Shown piece after piece: positions 1,940 through 30,364 of a DNA stretch of 32,000 bases. A model generated the notes under the pieces. It ran no database searches and was not told the DNA's origin. It saw nothing but the letters and a program-made list of their open reading frames with translations. Where the stretch lies: the NCBI RefSeq assembly GCF_000018105.1, contig NC_009925.1, positions 6,471,725 through 6,503,724 of the forward strand. The letters are read 5' to 3'. Within the stretch, counting starts at the first letter, position 1. Every line of letters starts with the position of its first letter. This DNA is from Acaryochloris marina MBIC11017. Its GTDB lineage: Bacteria > Cyanobacteriota > Cyanobacteriia > Thermosynechococcales > Thermosynechococcaceae. Both the position numbers and the translations under genes were made by a program.

Positions 1940-1956
1940 CTGACTTCCTCAGGCGG

Positions 1957-3141: not shown

Positions 3142-3183
3142 GACAAATATCCAGAAATTTGAATTACAGAAATGTAGCTGCCC

Positions 3184-11357: not shown

Positions 11358-11774
11358 GTGAGGATGGGTGCCCGATTACGTACTTTATTGAATAGCTCAG
11401 AAGAACAGACCTTATTTGAACTGAGGACAGCAACAACAGTCCCCCAACGGGTCAAAGATCGAGCCGCAATGATTCGATTGAGTCATCAGGGGATGTATGT
11501 AGAGAAAATTGCAGCCCTATTCCAGTGTAATGTTCGGACCGCTCGCCAAACCTTTCATCGCTGGCAACAGAAAGGATTAGGAGGGCTATGGGATGCACCA
11601 CATCCGGGTGCTCAGCGACGGTGGCACCCTGAAGATATTGAGTATCTCGAAACCTGTTTGCGTCAGGAAGAACGCACCTACAATAGCCAACAACTGTCTC
11701 GGAAACTGGCGAAGGAGCGTAACGTTCACTTAAGTGCAGACCGCATCCGGCAGATTCTCAAAAAAAGGGGGTGA
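11358..11774 (+). CDS. IS630-family transposase, N-terminal HTH part (orfA)
   Basis: 138-aa ORF (GTG at 11358, ATG at 11364) with helix-turn-helix-like segments. It ends in ...QILKKRG* directly on the slippery run A7G5 (11760-11771). Confidence 0.8.
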
Positions 11775-11851: not shown

Positions 11852-12379
11852 ATGTTGCAGTGGGCAGCAGCGAGTAGAGGGATTGAGTTGTATTATCGGG
11901 ATGAGTCTGGTTTTTGCCTATGGATGCCCGTGGAATATAGCTATTTCTTCAAGGGAGAGCAAAAGCGGATGGAACAGACTAAACGTAAGGGAAGACGTAT
12001 CAGTATTTTGGGGCTTCTCCAACCGTTGACGACCTTTGTTTATGGGCTAGTTGTCGGCAGTTTTAATGCCGACCGTTACATCAAAATGATGGATGAGCAA
12101 GCACGCCAGGCCCAACAACAACTGGATAAAACTGGACGGATTCGGGTCATCGTTCAAGACAATGGTTCTAGTCATACTTACAAGAAAGCGAAGCAAAAAT
12201 GGGCACAGTGGCAAACCCAAGGGCTCTATTTATTCTTTCTGCCCAAATACTGTTCACAGATGAATCCGATTGAAACAGAGTGGCACCAGCTCAAAGCGCA
12301 CCAATTGAGGGGGCAAATGTTTGAGCATGAGCTGGATTTAGCCTATGCGGTGATGGATGGCGTGAAGGCTAGAGCGTAA
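11852..12379 (+). CDS. IS630-family transposase, DDE catalytic part (orfB frame; probably defective)
   Basis: It carries YYRDESGF, VVQDNGSSH and NPIETEWHQLK, the DDE triad context. The same frame read from 11765 gives [33 protein letters not shown] -1 shift on A7G5 would therefore fuse orfA and orfB, but an in-frame TGA at 11801-11803 interrupts the fusion. Confidence 0.8.
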   Translation: MLQWAAASRGIELYYRDESGFCLWMPVEYSYFFKGEQKRMEQTKRKGRRISILGLLQPLTTFVYGLVVGSFNADRYIKMMDEQARQAQQQLDKTGRIRVIVQDNGSSHTYKKAKQKWAQWQTQGLYLFFLPKYCSQMNPIETEWHQLKAHQLRGQMFEHELDLAYAVMDGVKARA

Positions 12380-16500: not shown

Positions 16501-17067
16501 TTATGATTCTTCTGGCAAAATTGCTTCTAGGTAGGGTGCAATATAGTTGCGACCCTGTTCAAGATAGTAGGGAGTAAAAAGGGACTCAAACTCTTGAGCT
16601 ACGACCTGTGTGGCGGATTCTAGCCGCTGGCGGCCATAGACCAAGAATTGTGCTGCGGATGAAGCATAGTATTCTCGCTCTGCACCCTCAATATGCTTTT
16701 TAAAGGCAGCATGATAGAGCTCGCGGACCTCATTCATCAGCTGTTCAATCGGGGGTGAGAAGTGAATAGAGTCTCCACTGGGGAGATCGATTTGCTTGGC
16801 CAGAATAAATCCAATCACGGTTCTCATACATTCACGGGTTTGGTCTACTGAAAGGCACTGTGGGTCTTGTCGGCGAAATCCCCATTGAGTGCAACCATTG
16901 GTTACTTCCAGTACTCGCAATAGGGCCAGTTTATCTAGCTCTTTGGAATCGAACTGTTCTAAGGCCAAAATATGATGCTCAACCCGGTGCTGAAAACTGG
17001 CAAAATCAGCCTCAAAATATTGTCTGAGCTCCTTGATTTGGGACAGTTTCTGCCAGTTGGGCAACAT
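16501..17067 (-). CDS. Hypothetical protein, last gene of the CIS-associated operon
   Basis: 188-aa ORF with an ATG start, 75 bp downstream of the 820-aa gene on the same strand. It looks predicted-helical and soluble, with no recognisable motif. Confidence 0.6.
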   Translation of the reverse strand: MLPNWQKLSQIKELRQYFEADFASFQHRVEHHILALEQFDSKELDKLALLRVLEVTNGCTQWGFRRQDPQCLSVDQTRECMRTVIGFILAKQIDLPSGDSIHFSPPIEQLMNEVRELYHAAFKKHIEGAEREYYASSAAQFLVYGRQRLESATQVVAQEFESLFTPYYLEQGRNYIAPYLEAILPEES

Positions 17068-17142
17068 GATGGTATTACCTCTATTGCTGCTAACAGTTTA
17101 GAGGAGCCCCCCATAAAAGACTGGGTTGTAATTATTCGTGAA

Positions 17143-19605
17143 CTAAAACTGAGGTGGCAATTCTGCTGGTGGTGGCGAATTACGATCGCGGGGTACGGGC
17201 TGAATACCGCCGGGTGGATCGGGTAAAGGCGGAGCAGGTGCTGCCGCTGCGTTGGGATCTACCCCAGGAGCTGCCGCTGGAGGAGTTGAATTATTCGCCT
17301 CAGCACTTACGGGGGCATCGGACGCTTGAGCCACTGGAGCAGGAGGTGCCACAGTTTCAATCACCACGGATCGATTTTGTTGTTCACCTTTGGCATTCGT
17401 GACTTGCAGGGTTAGGGTTTGGGTGGCAGAGGTGGGGCCAAACGATAAATTTGCCTTGCCCTGGAGGGGAACAGTCCCTGGCGCAGGCAGTAAATTGACC
17501 TTAGTATTTTTACTCCCTTTAACCTTCCAGGATACCTTCACGATCAACGGCGTTTGATCTTTAAGGGCAAACACATATTTGGGTTTCGCAATCTGGCCAT
17601 TAATTTTGAATTCCTGGATTTGTACTGGCCCAGGCTGAATCTGGATCGGCTCGGTTTTTTGAATAATCGGAGATGGCTCTGCAGGCGGATTAGCCTGGGT
17701 GGGTTTCGGGGCGACTTTGAGCTCAAAGGTATAGGTCCCGGCGTCTTGAACCCCAGTTGGTACATTCAGACAAACTAGGGTTTGGACGTCCAAACGACAA
17801 TTTTTTTGTAGGGACTGGGGAATACCTTGAGTGAAGTCAAATATTTTGGGAGCTGTGACTGGTGCATTATCTGCTCCCCGACCAATTAGTGTCACTTTGG
17901 TTCCTTTGGCCTGGGTGATTTTCCAGTTCAGAAAAATCCCTGATGGTCCCCTTGGGGGAACCTGACCAATGGGTTCTGTATAGGTGGTCTTTGTGGATTC
18001 AAATTGTTGAATTTGAGGGGGAGGGAAGGGTTGAACCACAATTGCCTCTGTTTTGGCCGCAATGGGTTGAGGGACGCCCTCGGGTTGAGGGGAGAGAGAC
18101 AGCTCAAACCGATAGGTGCCAGGTTTGCGTGCATCCGTGGGCACCTGCTGACACCGCAGGACCTCAGTTAGGGTACAAAAATGGCTAAGGTCTGAGGGTA
18201 TTCCCTTTTGGAAATCGTAGATAAAGGGACCACTCATCACGACCCCGTCAGGAGAAACTCCTTTCAGTTGAAGCTGCTTGAATTTCTGAGGATTTTTTAT
18301 GGTCCAGTTCAGTTCAATGGGACGACCATCGGCCTCTTTGAGGGTATAGGTTGCTGGGGCAAAGCTGATAATCTCGGCTCGGGCTGGGGGACGGGTCAGT
18401 AACCACCATACGAGTAAGGCAATCCCAACTAAGGTGCCAAACAGGGTCAAAATAACCAGCAATAATTGCCACCAAGGTCGAGGTTCCCAAATCAATGCTC
18501 CTTGAAAGCGATTATTGGCAAGGGGGAGTTGCTGGGCATCTTCCAACTCCAGGGCAAAGTTGAGGGGGCGACCATAAAAGGGGCGCTTCCACCATTTGGT
18601 GGGCTGAACTTCTAAGCTGACCTTGGTCGAGGCATGGGGTAATAAATGGACTTGGGTGGGGTTAAGAGTATAGTCGCAGAGTTCTTCCGCATCTAGATTT
18701 TGGACCTGTAAATTGAGAGTTCGTGGGGTATTTCCAGCATTGTGAAGCCGTAGTTCAAACCATCCGGACTGGTTCTTGACTTGGCTGACCAGGGAAATAA
18801 GCTCGATATCAACCTGGTAAATCGGTAAAACTTGTAAATAAACCGCTTCCAACAACACCAGTTCCGGGTTGTTCATGGAAAACAGGCGGATGGTGGGGGT
18901 ATAAATGCCTGCATCCGTACCTAGGGGCGGCTGAATCAAGACCTGAATTTGGCCCGTATCCCCTGGGTTGAGTTCCAGGGCTTCACTGGCAATCACAACG
19001 CCGGTTTGCGGTCCTTCTGGATAAATAATCTTGACCCATTCGGTAGGCAGGTCTGGACAGATTAAGCGGAATCGATCGACGCGATCGCATCGGTTATCCA
19101 CCAGCACCGTTAAGGCCAACGCATCTCCAGTTTGTAAAGGCAGGGGAGACTCGGCCGTGGTGGTTGGGGTGATGCCTAAAACCGGATTGCTGACTTCTGC
19201 CGTTTCCCGGATGTAGGACAGCACCTGTAGCCGAGCCGGATAGCGGATCGGCGTCTCTTCTGGGTAATGTTTGGGGGCATCAATCACTAAGGTATAGGGA
19301 TAAAAGCCCGGTAGGGTTTCCGTTGGCACCTGAATACGGAAGAACACCTCGCTACTTTCTCCAGGGTTTAGGGCCAGACTTTCCCGGGAGGAGGTACACC
19401 ATTGGCTGACGATATCCGTGGGGTCTGTGATATCGATGTGGATAATGGCACTGTGGATTCCATCATTGGTGACGGTCACACTCAGTTCGAAAATTTCCCC
19501 CGCCTGAATCGCCACATCGCCGGATGGGTTGCGGATAATGCCCAAGGGATTGCCCACTTTCTGGGCTTGCAGGCCAATTTGATCAATTTGGGTGAGGTCT
19601 GTCAT
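17143..19605 (-). CDS. Single-pass membrane protein: three N-terminal beta-sandwich-like modules, a TM helix, three Ig-like repeats and a Pro/Ala-rich tail
   Basis: 820 aa.
- The TM helix PWWQLLLVILTLFGTLVGIALLVWWLL spans about aa 378-403 (nt 18397-18474).
- The N-terminal part has repeated ...NPGES.EVFFRIQVP-type strands, resembling CARDB/NEW3-like modules.
- After the TM there are three roughly 110-aa repeats. Two of them carry a conserved Cys pair (HFCTLTEVLRCQQVP and KNCRLDVQTLVCLNVP).
- The tail is APPAPVAQ...PPLPDPPGG...PPPAELPPQF. Confidence 0.8.
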   Translation of the reverse strand: MTDLTQIDQIGLQAQKVGNPLGIIRNPSGDVAIQAGEIFELSVTVTNDGIHSAIIHIDITDPTDIVSQWCTSSRESLALNPGESSEVFFRIQVPTETLPGFYPYTLVIDAPKHYPEETPIRYPARLQVLSYIRETAEVSNPVLGITPTTTAESPLPLQTGDALALTVLVDNRCDRVDRFRLICPDLPTEWVKIIYPEGPQTGVVIASEALELNPGDTGQIQVLIQPPLGTDAGIYTPTIRLFSMNNPELVLLEAVYLQVLPIYQVDIELISLVSQVKNQSGWFELRLHNAGNTPRTLNLQVQNLDAEELCDYTLNPTQVHLLPHASTKVSLEVQPTKWWKRPFYGRPLNFALELEDAQQLPLANNRFQGALIWEPRPWWQLLLVILTLFGTLVGIALLVWWLLTRPPARAEIISFAPATYTLKEADGRPIELNWTIKNPQKFKQLQLKGVSPDGVVMSGPFIYDFQKGIPSDLSHFCTLTEVLRCQQVPTDARKPGTYRFELSLSPQPEGVPQPIAAKTEAIVVQPFPPPQIQQFESTKTTYTEPIGQVPPRGPSGIFLNWKITQAKGTKVTLIGRGADNAPVTAPKIFDFTQGIPQSLQKNCRLDVQTLVCLNVPTGVQDAGTYTFELKVAPKPTQANPPAEPSPIIQKTEPIQIQPGPVQIQEFKINGQIAKPKYVFALKDQTPLIVKVSWKVKGSKNTKVNLLPAPGTVPLQGKANLSFGPTSATQTLTLQVTNAKGEQQNRSVVIETVAPPAPVAQASDAPVSAEANNSTPPAAAPGVDPNAAAAPAPPLPDPPGGIQPVPRDRNSPPPAELPPQF

Positions 19606-19621
19606 GAGCTTTAATCATCCA

Positions 19622-21865
19622 TTAGGGTTTGCCACAGGGGAGAGTTTGTCGCTGTATTCGGGACTGAACGTCTTTGACCGTGGTGGAAAATAAGCGAACT
19701 TGTGTATCATCGCTGCCGCTCAGCACGAGGATCTTGCCACCAATCACCTTCAGGTCCACACTGTTGATGCGATCGGAGGAACGGGGATGCAGAATATTTT
19801 GAAAGAAGTTTGCCATGCTAACGGTAGAGGGTTCATACAGTTCAATCCCCTCTCGGAATTCAGGATCTCGTTGACCATTGGGCAACAAGGGCCACAGCAT
19901 GACCCGACCATCATCACCCCCGCTGGCTAGGTAACAGCCATCGTCACTCATAGACACGGATCGCACGGGCTGTGTAGCCTCACTATGGGACCAGATTTCA
20001 GGCTTTAGGGTTTTGCAGGTGGTCGAATCCTGAAGGCAGGGGGCTAAATTCCACAGGGTAATATTGCCTTGGGTATCTGCGGTAGTCAGGAGCGTTGGCG
20101 TATCACGAGCTGTATCAATGCTTTGAATATAGTCGCGGTTGGTGCCTGATTCGGGATAGATAAGGGGCTCTAGGGCTTGTTTGGACTGCCAATTCCATAA
20201 GACCAACTGATTTTGTTGACCTGCGATCGCAAGCCACTGATCTGGATTTCCTAACAGCACTGAATCGTAGATGGCGAAAGGCATTTTTTGCTCTTTGAAG
20301 ATTTTGCGCTGTTGAGCTGTCCTCTGGGTTGCCCAGACAACAATCGTGCCACTGCCATGACTACTGAACAAATAGCGAGAGTCTTGACTAAACTCCACAT
20401 CCAAAACGCGATCAGCTTTTTCGTAGCTAAAGGTTTGCAGCGGATCTGTATGATCCGTATTTAAATCCCATAACTGAATTTGGCCATTTTCCAGACCCAC
20501 CGCCACCAAATCGTTATTGACAGGGCGATAGGTAATCCCACGAATGGCTTTTTGTTGCTGAGCCAACTGTTTGCCCCGCTGAATAATATTTTCCAAATAG
20601 GGGAAAGCCCACCAAGCGCTGAGTCCTTGCACACTCCAACGAATCGCCGTCGTATCGTTAGAACTGGACACAGCCTGATCCGCAATACCGTTAAAGGCGA
20701 CGGAGGTCACGGCCCCCCGATGACCATAATTGCGGTTGTATTGATTAAAGGGAGAAATCCACCATAGCCATACCCCGCCTACCAAAGCCATTAAGATCAC
20801 CAGCCACAACGGGATCCGAGGTTTAACTTTTAGTTGGAGAACATGGGTTTCATCGCGACTATCAATGCGTTCGACATTTGACCAAACGGCCTCCACTTGT
20901 ATGGTATGTCGCTTGGAAAAGCCCAACCAGTGGCGATCAGCTTCAGCAATCAACGAAAGTTTGCCAGAATCACCCAATCCCAACTTGATATTGTCTGGCA
21001 TTACCTCAAAGGTGCAGTGAGGGGGGGGATCGACGATCTCTGCTTGGGCATGTTGATATAGGTTACTGTTATTTTCAAATTGCAACTCATAGATAACCGG
21101 AGGAGATTGCCAAAACTTCAATTGAAACTGCTCTGGAATGCAATGTTCCTCTGGCTGGGCCTGAAAGGCCACAAAACCTAAGGGATCAATTTTCAAGTGT
21201 CCTTCAATTTGAGTGGGTGGCCCATAGGCATGACTCGCCTCAACCTGGAACCGATAGCCATGACTAGGAGCCTGCACCGGATCAGCAGGTACTTTACAGT
21301 TAAAGGTGGTTTGCACCCGTCCTCCAGGAGCCAGTTTTACTGTTTGCTCGTTGCCTTCCGGGAACCAACTGGCATCAATGCCTTGGAGACTGACGGTTGC
21401 AGTCGTTTTTAACTGACTGGGGTTACTGACCCATACCGGAATTTGAATTTCCTCTCCTGGATCAGCATCAAAATCTTCAACGGGTAAATTGAGCCCCAAG
21501 GGCACTGCCCCTGTTCCCTGCGCCAGAGTGAGCTTTAGAGATTCCCGTTCTTCTTCCTGCAGTTCAATGGAAAACACCCTTACAGCTAAGCTCATTAAGC
21601 CCACAAACCCTGGCACGGGACTATCGGTGATCTCAATTTGGAATTGGGTCGTATCTCCAGGAGGATTTTTACTACTAATGTCTGGTGAAACGTGATACCA
21701 TTTGCGCCCAGCTAGATGATTGGTCCCTGCAGCTGAGACCTCAAGCTGGAAACTGGCATATCGATCGCTGTGATTGACCACCTCCACGGCAAAGGCAGAG
21801 GGAGGACCTCCAGGGGTAAAGGCCAACTGCTTGGGTAATACTTGGGTGGCAAGCTGCTTTTCCAT
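19622..21865 (-). CDS. Single-pass membrane protein: N-terminal beta-sandwich-like modules, a TM helix and a seven-bladed WD40 propeller
   Basis: 747 aa.
- The TM helix IPLWLVILMALVGGVWLWWI spans about aa 351-370 (nt 20756-20815), with K/K/R on its N-terminal side.
- The C-terminal half has about seven WD40-like blades: GHRGAVTSVAF...IRWSV, ...GQIQLWDL, ...GTIVVWA, ...NQLVLWNW, ...GNITLWNL, PVRSVSMSDDGCYLASGGDDGRVMLWPL and ...GSDDTQVRLFS. Confidence 0.85.
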   Translation of the reverse strand: MEKQLATQVLPKQLAFTPGGPPSAFAVEVVNHSDRYASFQLEVSAAGTNHLAGRKWYHVSPDISSKNPPGDTTQFQIEITDSPVPGFVGLMSLAVRVFSIELQEEERESLKLTLAQGTGAVPLGLNLPVEDFDADPGEEIQIPVWVSNPSQLKTTATVSLQGIDASWFPEGNEQTVKLAPGGRVQTTFNCKVPADPVQAPSHGYRFQVEASHAYGPPTQIEGHLKIDPLGFVAFQAQPEEHCIPEQFQLKFWQSPPVIYELQFENNSNLYQHAQAEIVDPPPHCTFEVMPDNIKLGLGDSGKLSLIAEADRHWLGFSKRHTIQVEAVWSNVERIDSRDETHVLQLKVKPRIPLWLVILMALVGGVWLWWISPFNQYNRNYGHRGAVTSVAFNGIADQAVSSSNDTTAIRWSVQGLSAWWAFPYLENIIQRGKQLAQQQKAIRGITYRPVNNDLVAVGLENGQIQLWDLNTDHTDPLQTFSYEKADRVLDVEFSQDSRYLFSSHGSGTIVVWATQRTAQQRKIFKEQKMPFAIYDSVLLGNPDQWLAIAGQQNQLVLWNWQSKQALEPLIYPESGTNRDYIQSIDTARDTPTLLTTADTQGNITLWNLAPCLQDSTTCKTLKPEIWSHSEATQPVRSVSMSDDGCYLASGGDDGRVMLWPLLPNGQRDPEFREGIELYEPSTVSMANFFQNILHPRSSDRINSVDLKVIGGKILVLSGSDDTQVRLFSTTVKDVQSRIQRQTLPCGKP

Positions 21866-21868
21866 AGT

Positions 21869-23602
21869 CTAGATAGGGGGTAACTGAGATTGCAGTCGGT
21901 CTCGAATCCAGTTCAGACTTGAGATTTGATGTCCCTGCCATTCAGGTTTTCGTTGCCATAAAACATTGGCCGTTATATTCACTAAATGGGGATAGCGTTT
22001 GAGCAGCTTCAGCAGATCTGACGTTTCGACAATAAATAAACTGGTTTGGTAAAACGTTTGCCCTTTAATAGGGGGAAGATTGTCGAATAGCAAGCTGAGA
22101 TCTCCCCAACAATTACCCGCCGTCAAGGTGATGCTCTGATCAGTGAATTGAAGACCGCCGAAGATCACGAAATAGACTTTGCCGGATTCGGGTATCAAGG
22201 ATTCTTCCGCAGCCAGGTTTTGGCGATAGCCTCGATCTAAAAGCTGCTGGAACTGGATTTCAGGCCAATTTTGAAAATAATCTACCTGTCTAAGAACGTC
22301 GGCGAGTTGCGTTTGGCGATGCAGGAGGCGATTACCCAATTGAGGAAATTGGCGCAGCAGCCGCTGAAAAGCCTGATCCTCAATGACAAAAAGCGTGGTT
22401 TGTTCAACCGCCAGGATGGTATTTTGGCGGGCAACCCCAGAAAGTAAAGCCGTTTCACCAAATGCATCCCCGGAAACCCATTTATTTCCTTGTCGTTCAG
22501 GATGATCCATCTGGGACTGAATCACCCCGTTGAGAATGATATAAAATACTTGACCCAGCTCTCCTGCTCGAAAGATCACTTCTCCCGGCTCGTACTGGCG
22601 CTGATAGCCACAAGCGATTAAATCTTGAAGTTGATTTTCCGAAAAGTCCTGGAGAAAATCTACACTTTGCAAACACCGGAGTAAATCTAAATCCTGAGAT
22701 TGTCCCAGTTGTTGCCGGACTTGGCGCGATTTTGCTAAAAGCTCGTGGGTATAGGGGATCTGAATTTGGCTTAATAACGCCTGGACAGAGTTAGGGACGG
22801 TATTGGGGGTGGCGACTGAAGTTTGTTGAGAGCTAGAAGGGCGATGGTAAACGTTGGTGAATAAGTGGTGTAAAGCTCCTGCCAATTGACCAATTTCATC
22901 CTTATGTCGGGCATGGTGGTGCAAATGTTGAATTTCAGTGCTGGATTCATCCAGAGGTCGAATCGGAGCTTGCCGAAGCTGATGAGCTAATTGAGTGATG
23001 GGTTGGATCGGTTTTAAGACGGTTCGTCGAACTAAGTCATTCACTAACAACAGAATTAGGCCCAATAAGACGACCAACGTCCCCATCTCCATCCAAAAGT
23101 TGGCGTTCGCTAACTCTTTTACAGGCGCGGAAGGAATAAAAACGGCTTGAATTTGCAGGGTGCCATCCTGATCTAGACGTTGGGCAAAATAATAGTTTTC
23201 CTGGTCAGCATGGGTGATATAGCCGGATATAGTTTCTTGGTCGATCTGTTTCTGGAATTGGGTTTTGAGGGCTTCGGCTAGCTCATCTATATCCGGGAGC
23301 ATCGTGTCAGAGTTTGGCACCAAGACTTTGTAACACAAGGAGGGTTGAGTCTCGCACAAGGTGGAAACGACTGGGTAAGCCTCAGAAGCAGAATCATCCT
23401 GTTTGAGCTGATCCACCAACGCCATCAAGAGTTGCCCCCGAGACTCCAGCTCGTGATCAGCCTGTCTATGAACAGATTGATGAACGATCACCCCTGCAAT
23501 TCCGGTCGTGGCCATAAAAACCATTGACAGAATAAGGCTGAATTTGGTGGTTAGGTTTAACCGTCGCCACTGACGTTGTAAGGCGCTGGCAATATAAGGC
23601 AT
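21869..23602 (-). CDS. Two-TM membrane protein with a HAMP domain and two cyclic-nucleotide-binding domains, no output domain
   Basis: 577 aa.
- TM1 is FSLILSMVFMATTGIAGVIV.
- A loop of about 130 aa follows, then TM2 MEMGTLVVLLGLILLLV.
- The HAMP-like segment is LKPIQPITQLAHQL...DEIGQLAGALHHLF.
- cNMP domain 1 has GEVIFRAGELGQVFYIILNG and the phosphate-binding cassette FGETALLSGVARQNTILA.
- cNMP domain 2 has a degenerate cassette (WGDLSLLFDNLPPIKGQ). Confidence 0.85.
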   Translation of the reverse strand: MPYIASALQRQWRRLNLTTKFSLILSMVFMATTGIAGVIVHQSVHRQADHELESRGQLLMALVDQLKQDDSASEAYPVVSTLCETQPSLCYKVLVPNSDTMLPDIDELAEALKTQFQKQIDQETISGYITHADQENYYFAQRLDQDGTLQIQAVFIPSAPVKELANANFWMEMGTLVVLLGLILLLVNDLVRRTVLKPIQPITQLAHQLRQAPIRPLDESSTEIQHLHHHARHKDEIGQLAGALHHLFTNVYHRPSSSQQTSVATPNTVPNSVQALLSQIQIPYTHELLAKSRQVRQQLGQSQDLDLLRCLQSVDFLQDFSENQLQDLIACGYQRQYEPGEVIFRAGELGQVFYIILNGVIQSQMDHPERQGNKWVSGDAFGETALLSGVARQNTILAVEQTTLFVIEDQAFQRLLRQFPQLGNRLLHRQTQLADVLRQVDYFQNWPEIQFQQLLDRGYRQNLAAEESLIPESGKVYFVIFGGLQFTDQSITLTAGNCWGDLSLLFDNLPPIKGQTFYQTSLFIVETSDLLKLLKRYPHLVNITANVLWQRKPEWQGHQISSLNWIRDRLQSQLPPI

Positions 23603-23606
23603 AGCA

Positions 23607-24989
23607 CTAGGAGGTAGATGCTGCAGGTGTAGCTAGAAGTTGACGATAATGCTGGCGTTGCCAAGCATAGTGAAGGATATTGGTGCCAAACTCCTGGGCC
23701 GTGCGAATCTGGTCTCGGGCAAACCCTTCTTTGCTGCCGCCGCCCCAAACCACTGATAAATCGCCCACCAACATCAGCAGATGGTCACTGAAAAACAGTT
23801 CGACCGGCTGTTGGTTGACGATGGGTAACGCACCAAATTGAAAGGGTTGGCATCGAATGGGATGGTCTGCTGGCATGGTTTGCAGAGACTGTAGAGGCTG
23901 CCCCAATTGCTCAGCTAAGGTTCGAAAAGGGAGTCCTGTTTCATTCAGCTTGGCACTGAGAGCAGTTTGAGTAGCAGATAATTCGCGGGTAATATCTTGG
24001 CGCAACGGTTGGAGAGTCTGATGATCGGCAGATGCCCCCAACGCCTGTGAACGATCGATTTGAGACAGAGCTGTTTGTAGTTGGGCTTTAACGGTAAATA
24101 GTTCTGCTAACTGAGTGCCCCGAACTGAGACTTCAACCCACAAAAATCCCCCTTGCATGAGGAAATATCGGAGCGATCGCACTTGCACATCCGTTAAAGA
24201 TTGAGCCGATTGTGTCTGCAGGTACAGCACATCGTAATCCCTGAGATCAACCGCTTGGTTGCGATCCACCAGCTCAATGGGATGAGGCGCATCCACGGCC
24301 AGCAGATTGGGATACAGCACCTCAATAGATCTAAGAAAGGCTTGGAAATTAGTGATTGACTGCTGATTCTGAGGGGAGGGCGCAATGGGACTGACTTGAG
24401 CGATCTGGAGCACGGCTTGAGGACGAGATCGCGGCTGTCGTCGATACCGCAAATCCACCTGGTTAATTTGGGGAAAGAAGGGATCCGTCGGAAGCTCTAG
24501 CTGAGCTTGGGTATCAATGACGATCCGACAAATCTCAACTTCTCCGGGGCCGGGGGGATGGGTCTTTTCATCAATTCGAAACACCTCTGTCAGCACAGGG
24601 TTTTCCTCAGATTGCTGAAGTTGTTCTGGATCGACGTATTGGAGAACTAAATAGATGGTGGTCGGTTGCTCCACCCGAGAAGCAATCCTAAAGTCGATGG
24701 GCTCAGGGACTACGATGCAATTGCCTTGGTCATCAATGGCCATTCCCGGTTGAACCTGCAGCCATCGTTGGTCTTGAAACGGCTGGGAGATTTTGTCCGG
24801 TGGGGAAATGGGATGGATGCCTAACCCACAGACAATCCCCGGCTGATGGAGGGATTGGTAATACAAACTCTGGCGTTGGCGATGGTAATCATAGGCCAAC
24901 CGCCAACGCTCAGCATTAATCAACAGCCCATCCGTTACCCGCAGACGTTGCAGGGGTTGAACCGGGGGAGTGGGTGGTGAGTAGGTCAT
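23607..24989 (-). CDS. CIS-associated protein of unknown function with a possible DUF4159-like C-terminal half
   Basis: 460 aa, and its stop is 4 nt from the next start. The N-terminus is LRVTDGLLINAERWRLAYDYHRQRQSLYYQSLHQPGIVCGLGI. The central segment YDVLYLQTQSAQSLTDVQVRSLRYFLMQGGFLWVE resembles the DUF4159 signature (...LY..G...F.L.....LR.YL..GGFL..D). It occupies the slot directly after the gpI-like gene. Confidence 0.65.
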   Translation of the reverse strand: MTYSPPTPPVQPLQRLRVTDGLLINAERWRLAYDYHRQRQSLYYQSLHQPGIVCGLGIHPISPPDKISQPFQDQRWLQVQPGMAIDDQGNCIVVPEPIDFRIASRVEQPTTIYLVLQYVDPEQLQQSEENPVLTEVFRIDEKTHPPGPGEVEICRIVIDTQAQLELPTDPFFPQINQVDLRYRRQPRSRPQAVLQIAQVSPIAPSPQNQQSITNFQAFLRSIEVLYPNLLAVDAPHPIELVDRNQAVDLRDYDVLYLQTQSAQSLTDVQVRSLRYFLMQGGFLWVEVSVRGTQLAELFTVKAQLQTALSQIDRSQALGASADHQTLQPLRQDITRELSATQTALSAKLNETGLPFRTLAEQLGQPLQSLQTMPADHPIRCQPFQFGALPIVNQQPVELFFSDHLLMLVGDLSVVWGGGSKEGFARDQIRTAQEFGTNILHYAWQRQHYRQLLATPAASTS

Positions 24990-25010
24990 GGAGGAACTAG
25001 GGTGAGATTA

Positions 25011-25083
25011 GAATTGATAGGTGTAAATAGACAGGAATTAATAGGTGCAAATTTAAGGAGCAAGAATTAATAGGTGTGAAATA
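25011..25083. repeat. Three direct repeats with core GAATTRATAGGTG in an operon-internal spacer
   Basis: The copies are:
- GAATTGATAGGTGTAAATA (25011)
- GAATTAATAGGTGCAAATT (25035)
- GAATTAATAGGTGTGAAATA (25064)
They fill most of the 97-bp AT-rich gap between the gpI-like gene and the 460-aa gene. Confidence 0.6.
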
Positions 25084-25086
25084 AAA

Positions 25087-26142
25087 TCAGGACGATTCAA
25101 TGGATAAGTCGTAGGTGCAAAACGCGGGCTTCTCCTGCTGGATGATCTTGTGGATAAGGGGTTCAGAGAGAGGCTGTTGGGAACGCAAGCAAACGGAGAA
25201 ATGGAAGGGCTTGCCCCCACCGACGGTGGATTCTTGACCCAGGTGAGTTTCCCCCAGCACTAACCCACGATTAAAGGAATCTTGAATGGAGATCTGCTTT
25301 TGGTCTTCTGGGACAAACTCTTCCAAGGGGAGCCCCGTATATAAATGCAGATAGAGCCGCAGCCCTTTGCGCGTGCCTCGCCATTGATAGAGCTGAATCG
25401 CCTGACGAATCAGGGACCGTTGCCGAGATAGCGGCAATTCGGAGGCCAGCTGCCAGCCCACCCAATGGGACAGAAAGGGAAGTAAGGTTTCAGGGGCTGT
25501 CAGGGGATCGAGATAAGCCCAAAGGGTATCCAGGGTTTGAACGGCTGGTTCAAAGGCCTGCTCAAAAATATGGAGAAAGCGGCCAATAAAATCTACCTCT
25601 TTATAGATGTCGGGTAGGAAGGTGGGATAGAGACTGCGGGGGCGAACAAACAGTAAAAACTCTGCTGTCTCTAAGGTTAAGCCACTGGTCGCTTCGTTCG
25701 TCTCAGCATCAACAGTGCCGAAATACACACAGAGCCGCCCCCGAAAATCTAACCCCTGGGTTTGAATAAAGGCTGGACTAGACTCGGCCTCAAAAAAATC
25801 TTCCGGCAGCTGGAAGTATAAGACCGCTTCCATTTTGCTGCCAGGAGGCAAGGTTTGGCCTTCTTGCCCAATCCGACACCAGTCTAAAGGAAAGGTTCCT
25901 TCTGTCTCTAAGCTGATGCGAAGGGTGCGATCGCAGGTATTCTCCAGCTGCACCACAATTTCGCTAGGTTCCCCCGGATATAGCACCTGTTGACAGAGAT
26001 GGCTCTGTTGCCAAGCAAAAGGAGCTATCTCAGGTGTCACAGACTGTGATGCCGTCCTCACAATGGGTTGGGGCATCGTCGCCGCCACTGACATAGAGGC
26101 CAGTTGCAGTCTTAAGGGCAGTAGATCAGGGGAGGTGGTCAT
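25087..26142 (-). CDS. Baseplate wedge protein, P2 gpI / T4 gp7-like (Afp12/Pvc12 equivalent) with an N-terminal extension
   Basis: 351 aa. The C-terminal part is LPDIYKEVDFIGRFLHIFEQAFEP...LLPFLSHWVGWQL...SLIRQAIQLYQWRGTRKGLRLYLHLYTG. This is the conserved phage tail protein I-type domain seen next to baseplate J in eCIS and P2-like loci. The first 170 aa or so form an extra beta-rich module. Confidence 0.85.
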   Translation of the reverse strand: MTTSPDLLPLRLQLASMSVAATMPQPIVRTASQSVTPEIAPFAWQQSHLCQQVLYPGEPSEIVVQLENTCDRTLRISLETEGTFPLDWCRIGQEGQTLPPGSKMEAVLYFQLPEDFFEAESSPAFIQTQGLDFRGRLCVYFGTVDAETNEATSGLTLETAEFLLFVRPRSLYPTFLPDIYKEVDFIGRFLHIFEQAFEPAVQTLDTLWAYLDPLTAPETLLPFLSHWVGWQLASELPLSRQRSLIRQAIQLYQWRGTRKGLRLYLHLYTGLPLEEFVPEDQKQISIQDSFNRGLVLGETHLGQESTVGGGKPFHFSVCLRSQQPLSEPLIHKIIQQEKPAFCTYDLSIESS

Positions 26143-26172
26143 AGCAGTTACCGGGAAATAAGTTATCTCCTG

Positions 26173-28350
26173 TTACAGCAGACTGATAGCGTGACTAGAG
26201 CGAAGTGGGGCATTCTGCCAGGAGCAGAGCACCCCTAAAGGTCCTGGATCGATCACGGGTTCCTTGGGCAAAATCCGCTGCCAACGAGATTCCTGGCGAC
26301 GGAGTTCAAACAGCTGTACGGTTCCCAAATGACGCACCCCCGGCATGGGCTGAAACAGCGTCACAATATCCGAGGGATACACGGGACGGCCAAAGGGCCA
26401 ACCTCGGCCATCGGGACCGCCGGTAATTGGATTTAGAAACCGATAGAGGGCGACCTGAAGCTGATGTCGCATCTGTGTTTGGGCTTCTGGATTGTTATAG
26501 TTCGGCTCTAGGGCGACCTCTGCCTGAACGGTTACCCCGACATAGTGAGGTTGGTCATAGCGAATGGCCATGCCCAGGAGACGACGGTCATCTAAGTAGT
26601 CACTAATCTGGGTTTCCAGTTGGGGCGTCAAACTCAGAACATCTGGATGAAGCCCTTCGCCCCGCTCAATGGCGTCGGTACTCACCTGGGGAACGATTAG
26701 AAGTCGGACCTGCCCTGGGGTACCCGTTTGATCCGCAGGCAAACAGAGGACACGTGCAACTGCCCCTTGACCTGCCGTTAAGGCTAACGTCTCAAAATCT
26801 TCTTTGGTGACTGCGCGATCGCGAGTCCGCAACATTTGCGGTACGCGAATGACTGCAGCATCCAGGGATTCGGCATCAGTACCGTTCTGGGCAGGCTGAT
26901 GATTGATTACATTAGCGACATAGGGAACCGCCGTTTTCAAAATCCGAATCATCCCGCGTTGCACATTGCCTTTCAGCCCTCCGCCTGTACGATAGGTCGC
27001 CATCCGCAGTTCAGCTCCCTTCGGCGGGACCTTGCCATATTGGCGTTTCAGAGCTTGCTGCTCAGGGGCTAGGGCCACAAGATTGGCATTGGATTGGGCC
27101 ATTCGCTGTTGCGTTTGCACCTTGATTTGAGCGGGTTCTCGAATCAATGGTCCAAACTGTAGCGCCCCCGTCAGGGCATCAATAGTGTAGTGCAGGTCTT
27201 CTGGCCCAGAGTCCGCAAAGTCCGAGACCTCCGTCCAACGCTGGGGAATGCCACCGATAGGGGTCACCAACAGGTATTCCTGGGCTCGGCGAGGCAGAAT
27301 CGGTGCGGATTGGAGTTGAAAGGCTTGTCCAGGCGTGCCATCACTGGTTCCTAAAATTTCATTGTGAATTTGCAAAGATTGCGTCGTATCGACCGTCGCG
27401 CCAATGGCTTGCACCGACACCCCAACAATTTCTGGCGAACAACGATACCCCCATTGGGTGGTTTGTTCCGTTTCATAAATACACCGAATCCAGCGACCTT
27501 GGTAGCTGGCAAAATTTGTCACAGGCCAGTGTTGCGGCAGGTGTAAGATCACATCTGCTCCCTGGAGGGGATTACCATTTTGACGAGTTAACCGGGCAAA
27601 GCTAAAGCCATCCGTATGGTCATCGGCTTCATTTAATAAAATGGGTTGCCAGTAGACACCATTCCAAGCTTGCCACTGGCGGGGTGGACATTCAGGGTTA
27701 ATCCCTGTGGGAGTTGCCGCTTCCCCCTTAAACGTCACGGAGATCACATTTCCTGCCGGTTGCTCTGGCTCAAAGACGAGATAAAAACAATTGCCAGTTT
27801 GAGGTTGAGGATTGAAGCAGCTTAAGGCAGACCCTTGCCATTCTCCATCAGGATTTAGATTCCAGGATTCGGCAAAGCGATCTCGCACGAGCTGCGGTTC
27901 CATTTCAGCCCTATCAGCTGTCAGAAAGTGCCGCAGTTGGGGTTGCCCAATTGTGACAGGGCGATCGGTGCTAAAGACAATCGCTTCTTCCGTTTCCGTC
28001 CGTAGGGTTGCTACTTCCGTATCCATCGGAATCGTGTAGTTTTCCGACAAACCTGCACTGAGGTAGAAGGTCACTGGCGTCTTTGCTGGGGAGGGGGGCT
28101 GCAACCTGACCCCCATTAACTCTAAGAAGGTGACATAGTTGCGACGGGGCACCTGATTAAATCGCAGCAACATTTGGTCCGTTAGCCAGCTAAATAGCTC
28201 GACCAATGTAATTCCTGGGTCGCTGGGGTTATGGTGGGTCCATTCAGGGCAATAGCGAGGGATGCGGAGTAGACATTCTTGCACGAGATCATCGAAACTG
28301 CGGTCATCGAGATCTGACTTGGGTAGCTTGGGTAAGAAATCAAACTCCAT
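26173..28350 (-). CDS. Baseplate J / T4 gp6-like baseplate assembly protein (Afp11/Pvc11 equivalent)
   Basis: 725 aa. The N-terminus LDDRSFDDLVQECLLRIPRYCPEWTHHNPSDPGITLVELFSWLTDQMLLRFNQVP is the characteristic opening of eCIS-type putative baseplate assembly proteins. It lies 7 bp after the gp25-like gene. Confidence 0.9.
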   Translation of the reverse strand: MEFDFLPKLPKSDLDDRSFDDLVQECLLRIPRYCPEWTHHNPSDPGITLVELFSWLTDQMLLRFNQVPRRNYVTFLELMGVRLQPPSPAKTPVTFYLSAGLSENYTIPMDTEVATLRTETEEAIVFSTDRPVTIGQPQLRHFLTADRAEMEPQLVRDRFAESWNLNPDGEWQGSALSCFNPQPQTGNCFYLVFEPEQPAGNVISVTFKGEAATPTGINPECPPRQWQAWNGVYWQPILLNEADDHTDGFSFARLTRQNGNPLQGADVILHLPQHWPVTNFASYQGRWIRCIYETEQTTQWGYRCSPEIVGVSVQAIGATVDTTQSLQIHNEILGTSDGTPGQAFQLQSAPILPRRAQEYLLVTPIGGIPQRWTEVSDFADSGPEDLHYTIDALTGALQFGPLIREPAQIKVQTQQRMAQSNANLVALAPEQQALKRQYGKVPPKGAELRMATYRTGGGLKGNVQRGMIRILKTAVPYVANVINHQPAQNGTDAESLDAAVIRVPQMLRTRDRAVTKEDFETLALTAGQGAVARVLCLPADQTGTPGQVRLLIVPQVSTDAIERGEGLHPDVLSLTPQLETQISDYLDDRRLLGMAIRYDQPHYVGVTVQAEVALEPNYNNPEAQTQMRHQLQVALYRFLNPITGGPDGRGWPFGRPVYPSDIVTLFQPMPGVRHLGTVQLFELRRQESRWQRILPKEPVIDPGPLGVLCSWQNAPLRSSHAISLL

Positions 28351-28357
28351 GTCTTGC

Positions 28358-28762
28358 CTAGGTAATGGGGGTCAGATAAAAGGGATAAACTAAACTCCGG
28401 TAATCGTGGGTCTGTTTAGGATGGTATTCGAGGGTGATATCAACCCGCCCCTCAATGGGGTCTGGTTCTGTATAAACACCATCTAGAACAATGCGGGGTT
28501 CCCACCGTTGCAAGGCTTCTGTGACGTACAATCGAATCAACAAAAGGGTTTGAGTATTCATCGGGGCAAAGGTCAACTCGGAGAGACGGGAACCAAACTC
28601 AGGCCGATAGACCCGCTCCCCCAGTTTGGTCCCCAGAACGATTGCGATAGATTCTTCTATGTTGCGAATGGCGTGGGCACTAAATCGTAAATTCCCCTGG
28701 GTATTCACCCCAATGGGAAACGTCCAACCCGTCCCCAAATGAGCAGCTTGACCGTCCACCAT
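28358..28762 (-). CDS. GPW/gp25-family baseplate wedge protein (Afp9/Pvc9 equivalent)
   Basis: The ATG at 28762 gives MVDGQAAHLGTGWTFPIGV...IEESIAIVLGTKLGERVYRPEFGSRLSELTFAPMN...ALQRWEPRI, the gene-25-like lysozyme-fold signature. The track ORF starts 9 codons earlier on GTG at 28789. Confidence 0.9.
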   Translation of the reverse strand: MVDGQAAHLGTGWTFPIGVNTQGNLRFSAHAIRNIEESIAIVLGTKLGERVYRPEFGSRLSELTFAPMNTQTLLLIRLYVTEALQRWEPRIVLDGVYTEPDPIEGRVDITLEYHPKQTHDYRSLVYPFYLTPIT

Positions 28763-28890
28763 ACCCCTGTCCCATCTAGTAGAGCTCACTATAAGGGCTA
28801 GGTAAAAGAGGGACTATTGGCCAAAAGTCGTACCTATTGGGATGAAGATCACTAAACCTTTGTCATTAGACCTGACCCTAAGCGACTGGC

Positions 28891-28929
28891 AAAGCGATCA
28901 ACCATGTTGGTCTGTGGTTTGATCGCTTT
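28891..28929. promoter_or_regulatory. Inverted repeat AAAGCGATCAA ... TTGATCGCTTT upstream of the baseplate operon
   Basis: The arms are perfect 11-bp sequences (28891-28901 and 28919-28929) separated by 17 nt. The repeat lies about 130-170 bp upstream of the gp25-like start, in the 448-bp divergent spacer shared with ndhM. Confidence 0.4.
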
Positions 28930-29237
28930 ACTTTATCACCAAGAAGGTCTGATGCACCTATTAGCGAGAACTTCGGTATTTTCAACAACAAGACTTTTAA
29001 CGAATGGGTAAAAGTCTAAGCTTAGATCCGTTTAGTCATCTGGCCCCTAAATTATGTTCCAAAGGAACTAATGCTCGATCTTGGTCTACAGCGTGTTCAG
29101 TCTTTCACATCAACAATTAGTATTGGGAACCAACCATCTGGGATGGAAAGGTCAGATATTCCTTAATTCATTGCCCTGAAGTTCCTACCCATGTTTACAA
29201 TAGGTGCATAGAAGATCTAGCGCTGAGACATTAACCC

Positions 29238-29582: not shown

Positions 29583-29727
29583 CGAATGGCGGCTTACCAA
29601 GACCACATCCAATTCACCCCCCAAAGGCATGTCGACATGCAGAATCTGAGAGGTTGTTTGAGAAGTTAGGGAAGCTCTCAAGAGAGTAATCTGTCAATGT
29701 AGAAATTTCGACAAGGCCTTGAGAGCA

Positions 29728-29961
29728 ATGCCTACAGCTTACGCTAGCGACCTAACAGCAGAGCAATGGGAATTACTCGAGCCCCTGATTCCCGCTGCTA
29801 AACCTGGAGGTAGACCTCGCACCACTGATATGCTCAGTGTTCTCAATGCCATTTTGTATCTCGTGGTTACGGGTTGTCAGTGGAGACAGCTACCTCATGA
29901 CTTTCCCTGTTGGTCAACGGTCTATAGCTATTTTCGAAGGTGGCGTGATGATGGGACTTGG
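29728..29961 (+). pseudogene. IS5-family (DUF4096-type) transposase, N-terminal fragment only
   Basis: [78 protein letters not shown] is the typical first 80 aa or so of IS5/IS4-type transposases. The DDE part is missing, and the frame runs into the aroH sequence and stops at 30006. Confidence 0.75.
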
Positions 29962-30364
29962 GTCATGGAAAGTGAGGGCAATCCGCGGGGCAACGACAGC
30001 AACTGAGAATTCCGTAGCCGCAATACGGGAAGCCGTGAATGAGCTCATGTTGGCCATTGAGTCAGAGAATTCTCTGGATGTGAATGAAATTATTAGCGTA
30101 ACGTTTTCCGTGACTCGGGATTTAGATGCCATTTTTCCTGCAGCAATCGCTCGCCAGCGTCCCAACTGGGATACAGTCCCTCTCCTAGATGTGCAGCAGA
30201 TGCATGTATCAAGTGATCTGGAATATTGTATCCGCTGTTTGATCCATTTTAATACTGCAGATCCGAACCAGGCGATCCATCATATATATCAAAGAGGGGC
30301 CAGGCATTTACGCCCAGATTGGGGCTTTATCAAAGCAAGAGTTTCCACTTCCTCATCGTTGTAA
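29948..30364 (+). CDS. aroH: Chorismate mutase, AroH (type I) class
   Basis: [28 protein letters not shown]...[19 protein letters not shown]...LRPD matches the AroH pattern (compare B. subtilis MMIRGIRGATTV...). The track ORF from 29837 carries an implausible N-terminal extension over the IS remnant. Candidate starts are ATG 29948 or 29951 (AGGTGG upstream) and GTG 29972. Confidence 0.8.

Follow-up and report, generated by a model that had tools for sequence, protein, structure and literature searches.

Contractile injection systems (CIS) of subtype IId include those of Streptomyces and Roseiflexus and some cyanobacterial loci, and the Roseiflexus particles have been seen inside cells (PMC12998442). 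Firing of the Streptomyces coelicolor system (CIS-Sc) needs CisA (SCO4242), a bitopic protein with a disordered N-terminus that is encoded just 3' of the baseplate wedge genes. The cytoplasmic N-terminus of CisA is predicted to bind the wedge protein Cis11, and the signal for attachment and firing is attributed to CisA and an "unknown cellular signal" (PMC12237407). A further set of Streptomyces proteins, Sco4256-4258, share an N-terminus followed by a transmembrane (TM) segment and a variable C-terminus; CIS-mediated death and filling of the tube lumen depend on them, and in E. coli they are toxic (PMC10066040). Sco4256 is present in purified particles (PMC10020575). Weak homologues have been reported from cyanobacterial IId loci, one of them in Cylindrospermum (Vladimirov 2023). 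Another cyanobacterial system, the thylakoid-anchored CIS (tCIS) of Anabaena sp. PCC 7120, was grouped with AFP, PVC and MAC in the paper describing it. Here we analyse a window of 32,000 nucleotides from the chromosome of Acaryochloris marina MBIC11017 (NC_009925.1, positions 6,471,725 to 6,503,724; an identical stretch is found in AP026075.1), and in it the operon AM1_6406 to AM1_6400 (28762 to 17143, minus strand). This operon is probably one transcription unit that encodes the baseplate-periphery module of a subtype-IId-type CIS.

The wedge operon

An earlier note on the window, written from its sequence, had described eight closely packed minus-strand open reading frames (ORFs). All eight are reproduced as AM1_6406 down to AM1_6399, with gaps of 3-97 bp (in order 7, 30, 97, 4, 3, 16 and 75 bp). 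The features assigned to the operon, several with immunoglobulin (Ig)-like or cyclic nucleotide monophosphate (cNMP)-binding domains, are as follows.

28763..28950, minus strand: 5' leader and promoter region, about 190 bp upstream of the ATG, conserved between A. marina and a second Acaryochloris strain (L012)
28358..28762, minus strand: AM1_6406, gp25/Cis9 baseplate wedge protein, 134 aa (PF04965 GPW_gp25, 1.8e-19)
26173..28350, minus strand: AM1_6405, Cis11/Afp11-type Baseplate_J wedge protein, 725 aa (TIGR02243, 3e-197, full length; Baseplate_J, 2.7e-14)
25087..26142, minus strand: AM1_6404, Cis12 of the Tail_P2_I type with an extra N-terminal Ig-like domain, 351 aa (TIGR02242, 9e-38; PF09684, 1.2e-8)
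23607..24989, minus strand: AM1_6403, predicted fibre-position protein, 460 aa, with a Cis13-like N-terminal attachment domain resembling phage receptor-binding proteins and a DUF4159 domain interrupted by a helical hairpin
21869..23602, minus strand: AM1_6402, receptor with two TM segments, 577 aa, with a short extracytoplasmic domain, HAMP, a cNMP-binding domain and a degenerate C-terminal region
19622..21865, minus strand: AM1_6401, single-pass protein, 747 aa, with an N-terminal Ig-like module of about 340 aa, a TM segment near residues 347-371 and a C-terminal WD40 propeller
17143..19605, minus strand: AM1_6400, single-pass paralogue, 820 aa, with the same N-terminal Ig-like module, a TM segment at 381-399, C-terminal Ig-like repeats and a proline-rich tail

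Profile searches recover all three wedge assignments made earlier (gp25, baseplate J and P2 gpI; PF04965, TIGR02243 and TIGR02242), and the gp25-like, Baseplate_J and Tail_P2_I-type genes stand in that order, as in subtype IId or CIS-Sc-like loci. Cis11 spans the 659-position TIGR02243 model end to end and has homologues at 58-67% identity throughout the cyanobacteria, Gloeobacter included. Its best match in the PDB is chain K of 9GTP, the Streptomyces Cis11 (4.4e-113), and Cis12 matches chain E of the same entry at 1.7e-6 over residues 174-271. Chains of 9GTP, the cytoplasmic S. coelicolor CIS baseplate, are the only significant solved-structure matches for the two proteins, and no tCIS chain was matched by Cis11 (phmmer, E<=1e-3), Cis12 or AM1_6403 in PDB sequence searches at the thresholds used. 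The earlier note had likened the wedge core to that of Afp/PVC systems and had mentioned the Anabaena tCIS among membrane-attached CIS; of the characterised systems the Streptomyces cytoplasmic CIS is nearer than either, and we reject an extracellular CIS (eCIS) of the Afp/PVC type. As the best hits are to 9GTP, sheaths of related cyanobacteria are about 41% identical to those of Streptomyces, and the literature places Streptomyces and cyanobacterial loci in IId, we infer that the operon belongs to a cyanobacterial branch of IId, an assignment made from best hits and not from a tree.

The resemblance to CIS-Sc goes beyond Cis11, the Tail_P2_I type of Cis12 and the sheath: in both groups a response-regulator gene adjoins the cap gene, and both have paralogous single-pass proteins with a common Ig-like N-terminus and variable C-termini. 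The cyanobacterial systems differ in the extra N-terminal Ig domain of Cis12 (about 170 aa), in having a Cis13-like/DUF4159 protein 3' of the wedge genes where Streptomyces has CisA, and in the HAMP/cNMP receptor. The single-pass genes of A. marina lie in the wedge operon, whereas those of Streptomyces lie near the sheath and ATPase genes, and its CIS genes appear to be spread over at least three loci.

All seven ORFs are intact, and between strains every one of the seven genes has a ratio of nonsynonymous to synonymous substitution (dN/dS) of 0.03-0.09 at dS 0.85-1.33. HIP1 octamers lie inside five of the genes exactly where they had been reported (19081, 20223, 24173, 25927 and 26815), so that 12.3 kb hold five of them, compared with 11 across the window. 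This density, together with the strong purifying selection, is consistent with the long genomic residence proposed before. The second strain, 93% identical, carries the same seven genes between different neighbours. The leader alignment of about 190 bp is kept despite the different genes upstream of it, which are an acetyltransferase gene and kai genes in L012 and, as already noted, the divergent ndhM upstream of gp25 in A. marina. The gp25 ORF extends to a GTG at 28789, but its start is most likely the ATG at 28762, which is favoured by a 1-nt indel between the two codons in L012; gene callers likewise give 134 aa.

Conserved gene order and dispersed modules

Searching GTDB species genomes with the Cis11 profile yielded at least 593 matching stretches. 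We annotated 87 loci with phmmer, namely the 80 best genome matches and seven others; downstream counts refer to the 62 loci with at least 9 kb 3' of Cis11, and upstream counts to the 56 with at least 6 kb 5' of gp25.

Downstream of Cis11 (62 loci): Cis12 in 60, DUF4159 protein in 60, WD40 protein in 36, Ig protein in 33, receptor in 19

The block gp25-Cis11-Cis12-DUF4159 is found in 60 of the 62 loci, the Ig protein always occurs together with the WD40 protein, and the receptor never occurs without the latter. The association also holds from the accessory side. When metagenomes were searched with the N-terminal module of AM1_6401, 44 of the 48 matches with enough upstream sequence lay beside CIS-linked genes (40 beside a core CIS gene and 4 more beside the DUF4159 gene), so the accessory genes are genuine components of the lineage. 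The suggestion that the downstream genes belong with the wedge is borne out from both directions, and four of the five are conserved parts of the cyanobacterial lineage.

The earlier note had recognised no precedent for the downstream set, but the same order, without the receptor, is present in the eCIS operon of Cylindrospermum stagnale PCC 7417 listed by Geller 2021 (operon 939), which ends exactly at the end of the Ig-protein gene. Catalogued cyanobacterial IId loci (dbeCIS, e.g., Calothrix sp. NIES-4101; Geller operon 939) share the order gp25-Cis11-Cis12-DUF4159-WD40-Ig, with 62% Cis11 identity. They differ from the A. marina operon in being contiguous with spike genes and, in Cylindrospermum, in having no receptor gene. 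Among 30 loci contiguous with VgrG and with enough flank on both sides, 19, mostly of Nostocales, have an operon that ends at a 399-405-aa DUF4159 protein without the helical hairpin. These short-type loci (L075-L095, Nostoc and Calothrix; e.g., L088 13376-14593) have no WD40, Ig or receptor gene, and their downstream genes lie on the opposite strand; since the operon there ends at the DUF4159 gene, the membrane set is a trait of a sub-lineage. A typical Nostoc-type gp25-Cis11-Cis12-DUF4159 block also stands on a contig labelled 'uncultured Acetobacteraceae bacterium' (L064, a metagenome-assembled genome from a lichen-like sample), a label that is probably a binning error.

Upstream of gp25, VgrG is present in 33 of the 56 loci and absent from 23. 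Fifteen of the latter, among them loci of Gloeobacter, Spirulina, Aphanocapsa and Aliinostoc, lack upstream CIS genes altogether; the other eight have cap and ATPase or sheath/tube-module genes immediately upstream (7) or a small spike-module ORF alone (1). In Pseudanabaena ABRG5-3, about 45 kb of plasmid separate the spike/wedge operon from the cap gene and sheath/tube operon, and in Brasilonema the sheath is in a separate divergent operon. C. stagnale PCC 7417 and Desertifilum have tube, tape measure, tube initiator, VgrG, PAAR, gp25, Cis11, Cis12, DUF4159, TM-WD40 and large Ig/TM protein genes in a row. The CIS genes of the lineage form three or four often unlinked modules: cap and ATPase; sheath and tubes; tube initiator, tape measure, VgrG and PAAR; and wedge.

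The spike module showed two further features. In several loci (L007 1-2931; L013 3070-6458; L023, L026, L036 and L037) the genes ahead of the tube gene include one for a PBP_like_2 'substrate-binding' protein of approximately 800 aa and an ORF of 52-80 aa; the C-terminal domain of Streptomyces CisA is reportedly substrate-binding-like (PMC12237407). The presumed tape measure, encoded between the tube and tube-initiator genes, ranges from 1136 to 2531 aa across genomes (L013 6462-14057; L007 2947-6357; L011 90-4106), a spread that would predict very different particle lengths.

In A. marina itself the remaining parts are not beside the wedge. Six-frame phmmer searches of the window with lineage-matched queries (E<=1e-3) found no sheath, tubes, CIS_tube, tube initiator, VgrG, PAAR, tape measure, DUF4255 cap or AAA ATPase, in agreement with the earlier reading. 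That reading had also taken the operon to stand alone, and here the annotated genome suggests otherwise. RNA-seq tables for strains MBIC11017 and MU13 list AM1_0271 as a phage tail sheath protein (K06907), with the neighbours AM1_0268 and AM1_0270-0278, AM1_0269 being named, as an MBIC11017 ortholog, in the MU13 table only; they also list a VgrG locus with AM1_5911, a 'Rhs element Vgr protein', and AM1_5907 and AM1_5908 (PMC11633204). Expression of these genes is higher in low far-red than in high white light, with a log2 fold change (log2FC) of -1.1 to -2.6 for AM1_0270-0278 and -0.9 for AM1_5911, and AM1_6400-6406 change in the same direction in MBIC11017 (-1.2 to -2.3; PMC11633204). In MU13, the 35 genes with the strongest induction in low far-red include the orthologues of sheath-cluster genes, AM1_5907, gp25 and the DUF4159 gene (PMC11633204). 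The parallel change of the modules is not discussed in the parts of that report on which we draw (PMC11633204). Because a sheath cluster and a VgrG locus are annotated elsewhere in the genome and are expressed in the same direction, we read the operon as one module of a dispersed system, a split that the 23 loci without upstream VgrG share. A Pseudanabaena sheath query had no Acaryochloris protein among its best 120 of 6537 matches (at least 72% identity), and searching PLSDB by tblastn with VgrG and sheath yielded no match at lineage level (at least 60% identity) on an Acaryochloris plasmid.

The lack of any other CIS gene within 32 kb, and the eCIS-negative score of Acaryochloris in Geller 2021, could also be taken to mean that the operon is a decayed remnant or a wedge-only device working without sheath and tube. 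We consider this very improbable. Seven intact ORFs with dN/dS of 0.03-0.09, an operon that is transcribed and regulated, and sheath and VgrG genes that are annotated elsewhere in a lineage where such splitting is common largely refute decay. In Geller 2021, Gloeobacter was scored negative along with Acaryochloris, which is the expected outcome where modules are dispersed; cluster-based eCIS catalogues miss scattered systems of this kind.

Some side observations concern regulation. A response-regulator gene lies beside the DUF4255/Pvc16 cap gene in Pseudanabaena (L015 8886-9584) and on two Streptomyces plasmids (L171 21304-21933; L172 31360-32010), and AM1_0267, a LuxR-type response regulator, adjoins the A. 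marina sheath cluster; it may be a conserved dedicated regulator. Two other clusters, AM1_3683-3690 and AM1_3478-3485, are likewise among the most strongly induced genes in low far-red (PMC11633204). Between them they hold genes for 'phage tail collar' proteins, together with an acetyltransferase gene, and a series of genes for hypothetical proteins.

The fibre-position protein

AM1_6403 had been described as a protein without recognised phage counterpart, a view that the profile and structure matches overturn. Its N-terminal domain matches the NCBIfam model CIS13_fam at 5.7e-9, and the N-terminal approximately 100 residues match this model in all 34 family members (best 1.7e-13); DUF4159 is matched in 30 of the 34. 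The AlphaFold2 model is confident (predicted local distance difference test, pLDDT, 83.7) and consists of a beta-rich N-terminal domain and an alpha/beta domain that a helical hairpin interrupts. Foldseek found phage-like matches in BFVD only, a series of receptor-binding, tail-fibre and minor-tail proteins aligned over approximately 130-180 columns, and PDB sequence searches with the single sequence and with the 34-sequence profile gave nothing significant. AM1_6403 has no TM segment, its best 19-residue hydropathy window being 1.45. On the Cis13-like N-terminal domain, DUF4159, the phage-like BFVD matches and the lack of a TM segment, we regard AM1_6403 as a predicted soluble, baseplate-attached protein in the fibre position, unlike the Cis13 of Anabaena.

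This difference matters for the comparison with the tCIS, which, like the system proposed here, is a cyanobacterial intracellular CIS held at the membrane by baseplate-associated proteins; the CIS13 match of the AM1_6403 N-terminus is a further resemblance. The Cis12 of A. marina lacks the membrane-contacting C-terminal extension of approximately 500 aa (351 aa in total; CIS12_fam scores 69.6 bits against a cutoff of 860 and covers the core only), and the Cis13-like protein lacks the TM helix, its remainder being DUF4159. The tCIS, grouped with AFP, PVC and MAC, is moreover of another lineage than this IId-like operon. We reject membership in the Anabaena type. Pfam and NCBIfam scans of the window proteins recognised no Cis19-like crown gene, no dedicated Cis19 search being part of them.

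A protein that resembles phage receptor-binding proteins at its N-terminus would also suit an extracellular CIS that is released by lysis, in which the DUF4159 protein would act as tail fibre or bind a receptor while assembly or release would fall to the membrane proteins, and the Cylindrospermum cluster is indeed catalogued as an eCIS (Geller 2021). We find this improbable: the closest characterised systems, those of Streptomyces, are cytoplasmic, and the IId particles of Roseiflexus were seen inside cells (PMC12998442). DUF4159 is not a known receptor-binding fold, the AM1_6403 model has no fibre-like shaft, the operon has no lysis cassette, and three membrane proteins are conserved in the baseplate operon.

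The single-pass membrane proteins

The domains and TM segments assigned to the two single-pass proteins are confirmed. AM1_6401 matches WD40 at 1.9e-21, and its TM segment is conserved across 37 homologues, with a lysine and arginine (K/R) bias of 70 before against 36 after, which favours a cytoplasmic N-terminus for the WD40 family. AM1_6400 has an NPCBM_assoc Ig-like domain (1.9e-9), and proline makes up 26% of its last 81 residues. The regions before the TM segments are homologous over approximately 295 columns (hhalign probability 98.2%, E 3.7e-14; controls below 5%) and comprise three Ig-like domains. The N-terminal domain of Cis12 matches the N-modules of both proteins at hhalign probabilities of 90-93%. 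By these profile comparisons the two proteins are paralogues, and their shared N-module is related to the N-terminus of Cis12.

No counterpart of these proteins had been recognised either, but both N-module hidden Markov models match a Streptomyces clavuligerus pSCL4 protein at 2e-8. The hhalign probabilities between this protein and the N-modules are 94.3% (AM1_6401) and 97.1% (AM1_6400), and in reciprocal phmmer searches it matched these two cyanobacterial families only. It has an Ig-like N-terminus, a TM segment at 221-241, a proline-rich linker and PG_binding_1, and is encoded between the sheath operon and the ATPase gene, the interval that sco4256 occupies in S. coelicolor. It looks like a member of the Sco4256-4258 class, to which it is assigned by architecture and position only. 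The A. marina proteins show the architecture of that family, with N-modules matching each other at 98.2%, a conserved TM segment and 94-97% to the S. clavuligerus protein, which stood for the class in these comparisons. Compared with Sco4256-4258 (Casu 2023; Vladimirov 2023), they share the Ig-like N-module, the single TM segment, the variable C-terminus, the occurrence as paralogues and the location in IId clusters. They differ in having three Ig-like domains where the Streptomyces (S. clavuligerus) protein has about two, and in C-termini that are a WD40 propeller or Ig/proline-rich, in contrast to the ricin-type lectin or peptidoglycan-binding domains of Streptomyces.

This kinship brings in the main rival explanation, a distinct if minority possibility, in which the same dispersed IId-type CIS carries the single-pass proteins as cargo or effectors in or on the particle and the receptor is a separate regulator. 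Streptomyces mutants deleted for sco4256-4258 have particles with an empty lumen and no longer undergo CIS-mediated death, and the toxicity of the proteins in E. coli fits the same role (PMC10066040), as does the presence in purified particles (PMC10020575) of Sco4256, whose class appears to include the Streptomyces protein matched by the A. marina N-modules. However, the C-termini carry binding folds (WD40, Ig repeats and a proline-rich tail) and no toxin or enzyme domain; proteins of 750-820 aa with a TM segment would be awkward in a tube lumen; a structural part of the wedge, the N-terminus of Cis12, is related to the N-module too; and the genes lie directly 3' of the wedge and fibre genes, not beside those of tube or spike. 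An extracellular mode is less likely than cargo.

The receptor

AM1_6402 has TM segments near residues 22-40 and 173-191, a HAMP domain and PF00027 cNMP_binding (6e-17). The two TM segments, HAMP and one cNMP-binding domain had thus been recognised correctly, whereas the tandem copy proposed with them was not upheld, as Pfam detects a single domain (residues 335-418) and the last 140 aa could be no more than a degenerate second copy. Homologues in the same slot of other loci have the architecture dCache_1-TM-HAMP-cNMP or Tll0287-like-TM-HAMP-cNMP; the sensor domain of AM1_6402 is shorter and related to the Tll0287-type group. The phosphate-binding cassette, with its Gly-Glu and Arg, is canonical in most of the receptors and kept in AM1_6402. 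No enzymatic output domain was found in the receptor family. PADLOC gave merely generic cNMP-domain matches to Pycsar effectors, and for this reason we reject a known defence system.

The Tll0287-like sensor domain, whose family takes its name from a photosystem II-associated haem protein, occurs in some of the wedge-operon receptors (L025 9085-10674, 2.4e-40; L071 6411-8000; L074 5439-7010), and the sensor domain of AM1_6402 aligns to these without having the CXXCH motif. In another subset of loci, a CHASE2-domain membrane protein of approximately 600 aa is encoded directly upstream of gp25 (L011 7275-9092; L020, L021, L035 and L038), so that the same operon holds another kind of sensor in another position.

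Proposed membrane coupling and its trigger

CisA offers a precedent for membrane coupling through a gene just 3' of the wedge genes. The S. clavuligerus gene in the CisA position gave no match to the accessory-protein profiles. By analogy with Streptomyces, with its cytoplasmic particles and CisA, and from the wedge-related Ig module, we infer membrane coupling and receptor gating in A. marina. The particle would assemble in the cytoplasm, as in Streptomyces, and the Ig modules of AM1_6400 and AM1_6401 would attach to the periphery of the wedge, at Cis12, at Cis11 or at the Cis13-like protein. With the WD40 and Ig/proline-rich domains lying beyond the cytoplasmic or thylakoid membrane, the baseplate would thereby be tied to the membrane. 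The receptor would integrate an extracytoplasmic cue with cAMP or cGMP and license docking or firing, and the result under stress would be damage to the cell's own envelope or the death of the cell; other cells would not be the target. More specifically, AM1_6402 and its Cache/Tll0287 relatives might be a dedicated trigger or licensing switch that acts via the Ig-module proteins to dock the baseplate and set off contraction; we offer this as a tentative idea, well short of likely. If it were true, this would be the first ligand-gated, second-messenger-controlled CIS, tied to light-regulated expression in a photosynthetic cell.

Several points weigh against a membrane-coupled, receptor-gated CIS of this lineage. 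In Streptomyces, proteins of the Sco4256 type are read as cargo or effectors and not as anchors, because the tube lumen is empty without Sco4256-4258 (PMC10066040). The cyanobacterial lineage is known from genes alone in any member. In A. marina, AM1_0268-0278 and AM1_5907-5911 are placed in it by annotation and shared direction of expression alone, and the cap and AAA+ ATPase seen in related loci have so far not been named. The K/R bias around the TM segment of the AM1_6400 family is ambiguous (48 before and 66 after), and the cNMP cassette of AM1_6402 is less canonical than those of its relatives. For AM1_6403, the 34-sequence profile did not reach the Anabaena Cis13 chain, and Foldseek against the PDB gave no significant match and none below E 0.1. 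The most suggestive was IglD (E 0.3), a TssK-like baseplate protein.

The kind of system and its gene order are already catalogued, and the link between Sco4256 and cyanobacteria is in print (Vladimirov). In the literature searched, we found no description of the Cis13-like/DUF4159 protein, of the Cache/Tll0287-HAMP-cNMP receptor family in the wedge operon, of the WD40/Ig paralogy and its relation to Cis12, or of the frequency of the dispersed layout. Searches for DUF4159 with contractile systems, WD40 with cyanobacterial CIS and cyclic nucleotide-binding with CIS returned nothing relevant, and the supplements of Weiss 2022, Chen 2019 and the 2026 fibre catalogue have no Acaryochloris or DUF4159 entries. 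One operon under strong purifying selection holds candidate coupling parts and, in a sizeable subset of genomes, a receptor with a ligand-binding output domain. These are testable candidates for the coupling and the signal in an organism that can be grown in the laboratory and in which expression of the dispersed modules is higher in low far-red light.

Neighbouring genes

The eighth ORF, which the earlier note had counted as a member of the operon, is listed here as a neighbour.

16501..17067, minus strand: AM1_6399, 188-aa ORF with no family match in Pfam, NCBIfam or PADLOC

It is absent from strain L012 and from all other loci annotated, and it is probably a separate unit and not a component of the system. 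Its log2FC is -0.57, compared with -1.2 to -2.3 for the operon. A promoter-like site precedes it (17160-17131), from a promoter and terminator scan of little information, as such sites were fewer than in shuffled sequences.

Pfam scans of 18 flanking ORFs found no capsid, terminase or integrase. Outside the block there are 27 ORFs that reach 80 aa, of which the 18 were covered, the others being mostly short and overlapping longer ORFs; the scans recognised glycosyltransferases, response regulators, GH38, insertion sequence (IS) fragments, ndhM, chorismate mutase and CBS only. With neither these genes nor a lysis cassette beside the tail genes, a prophage or tailocin identity is rejected, as it had been for a prophage before.

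At 770-4383 (minus strand) there are three tandem GT28-like glycosyltransferase paralogues (389, 394 and 399 aa), followed by two response-regulator genes, with a WecG/TagA-family glycosyltransferase and a 1041-aa GH38 alpha-mannosidase nearby. An IS630-type transposase is split into an HTH ORF (11358-11774, plus strand) and a DDE_3 ORF (11852-12379, plus strand). Between ndhM and the chorismate mutase gene lies a DUF4096 IS4/5 fragment (29719-30006, plus strand) that overlaps the long, GTG-started chorismate mutase ORF, and several short-read assemblies end near this IS fragment beside ndhM.

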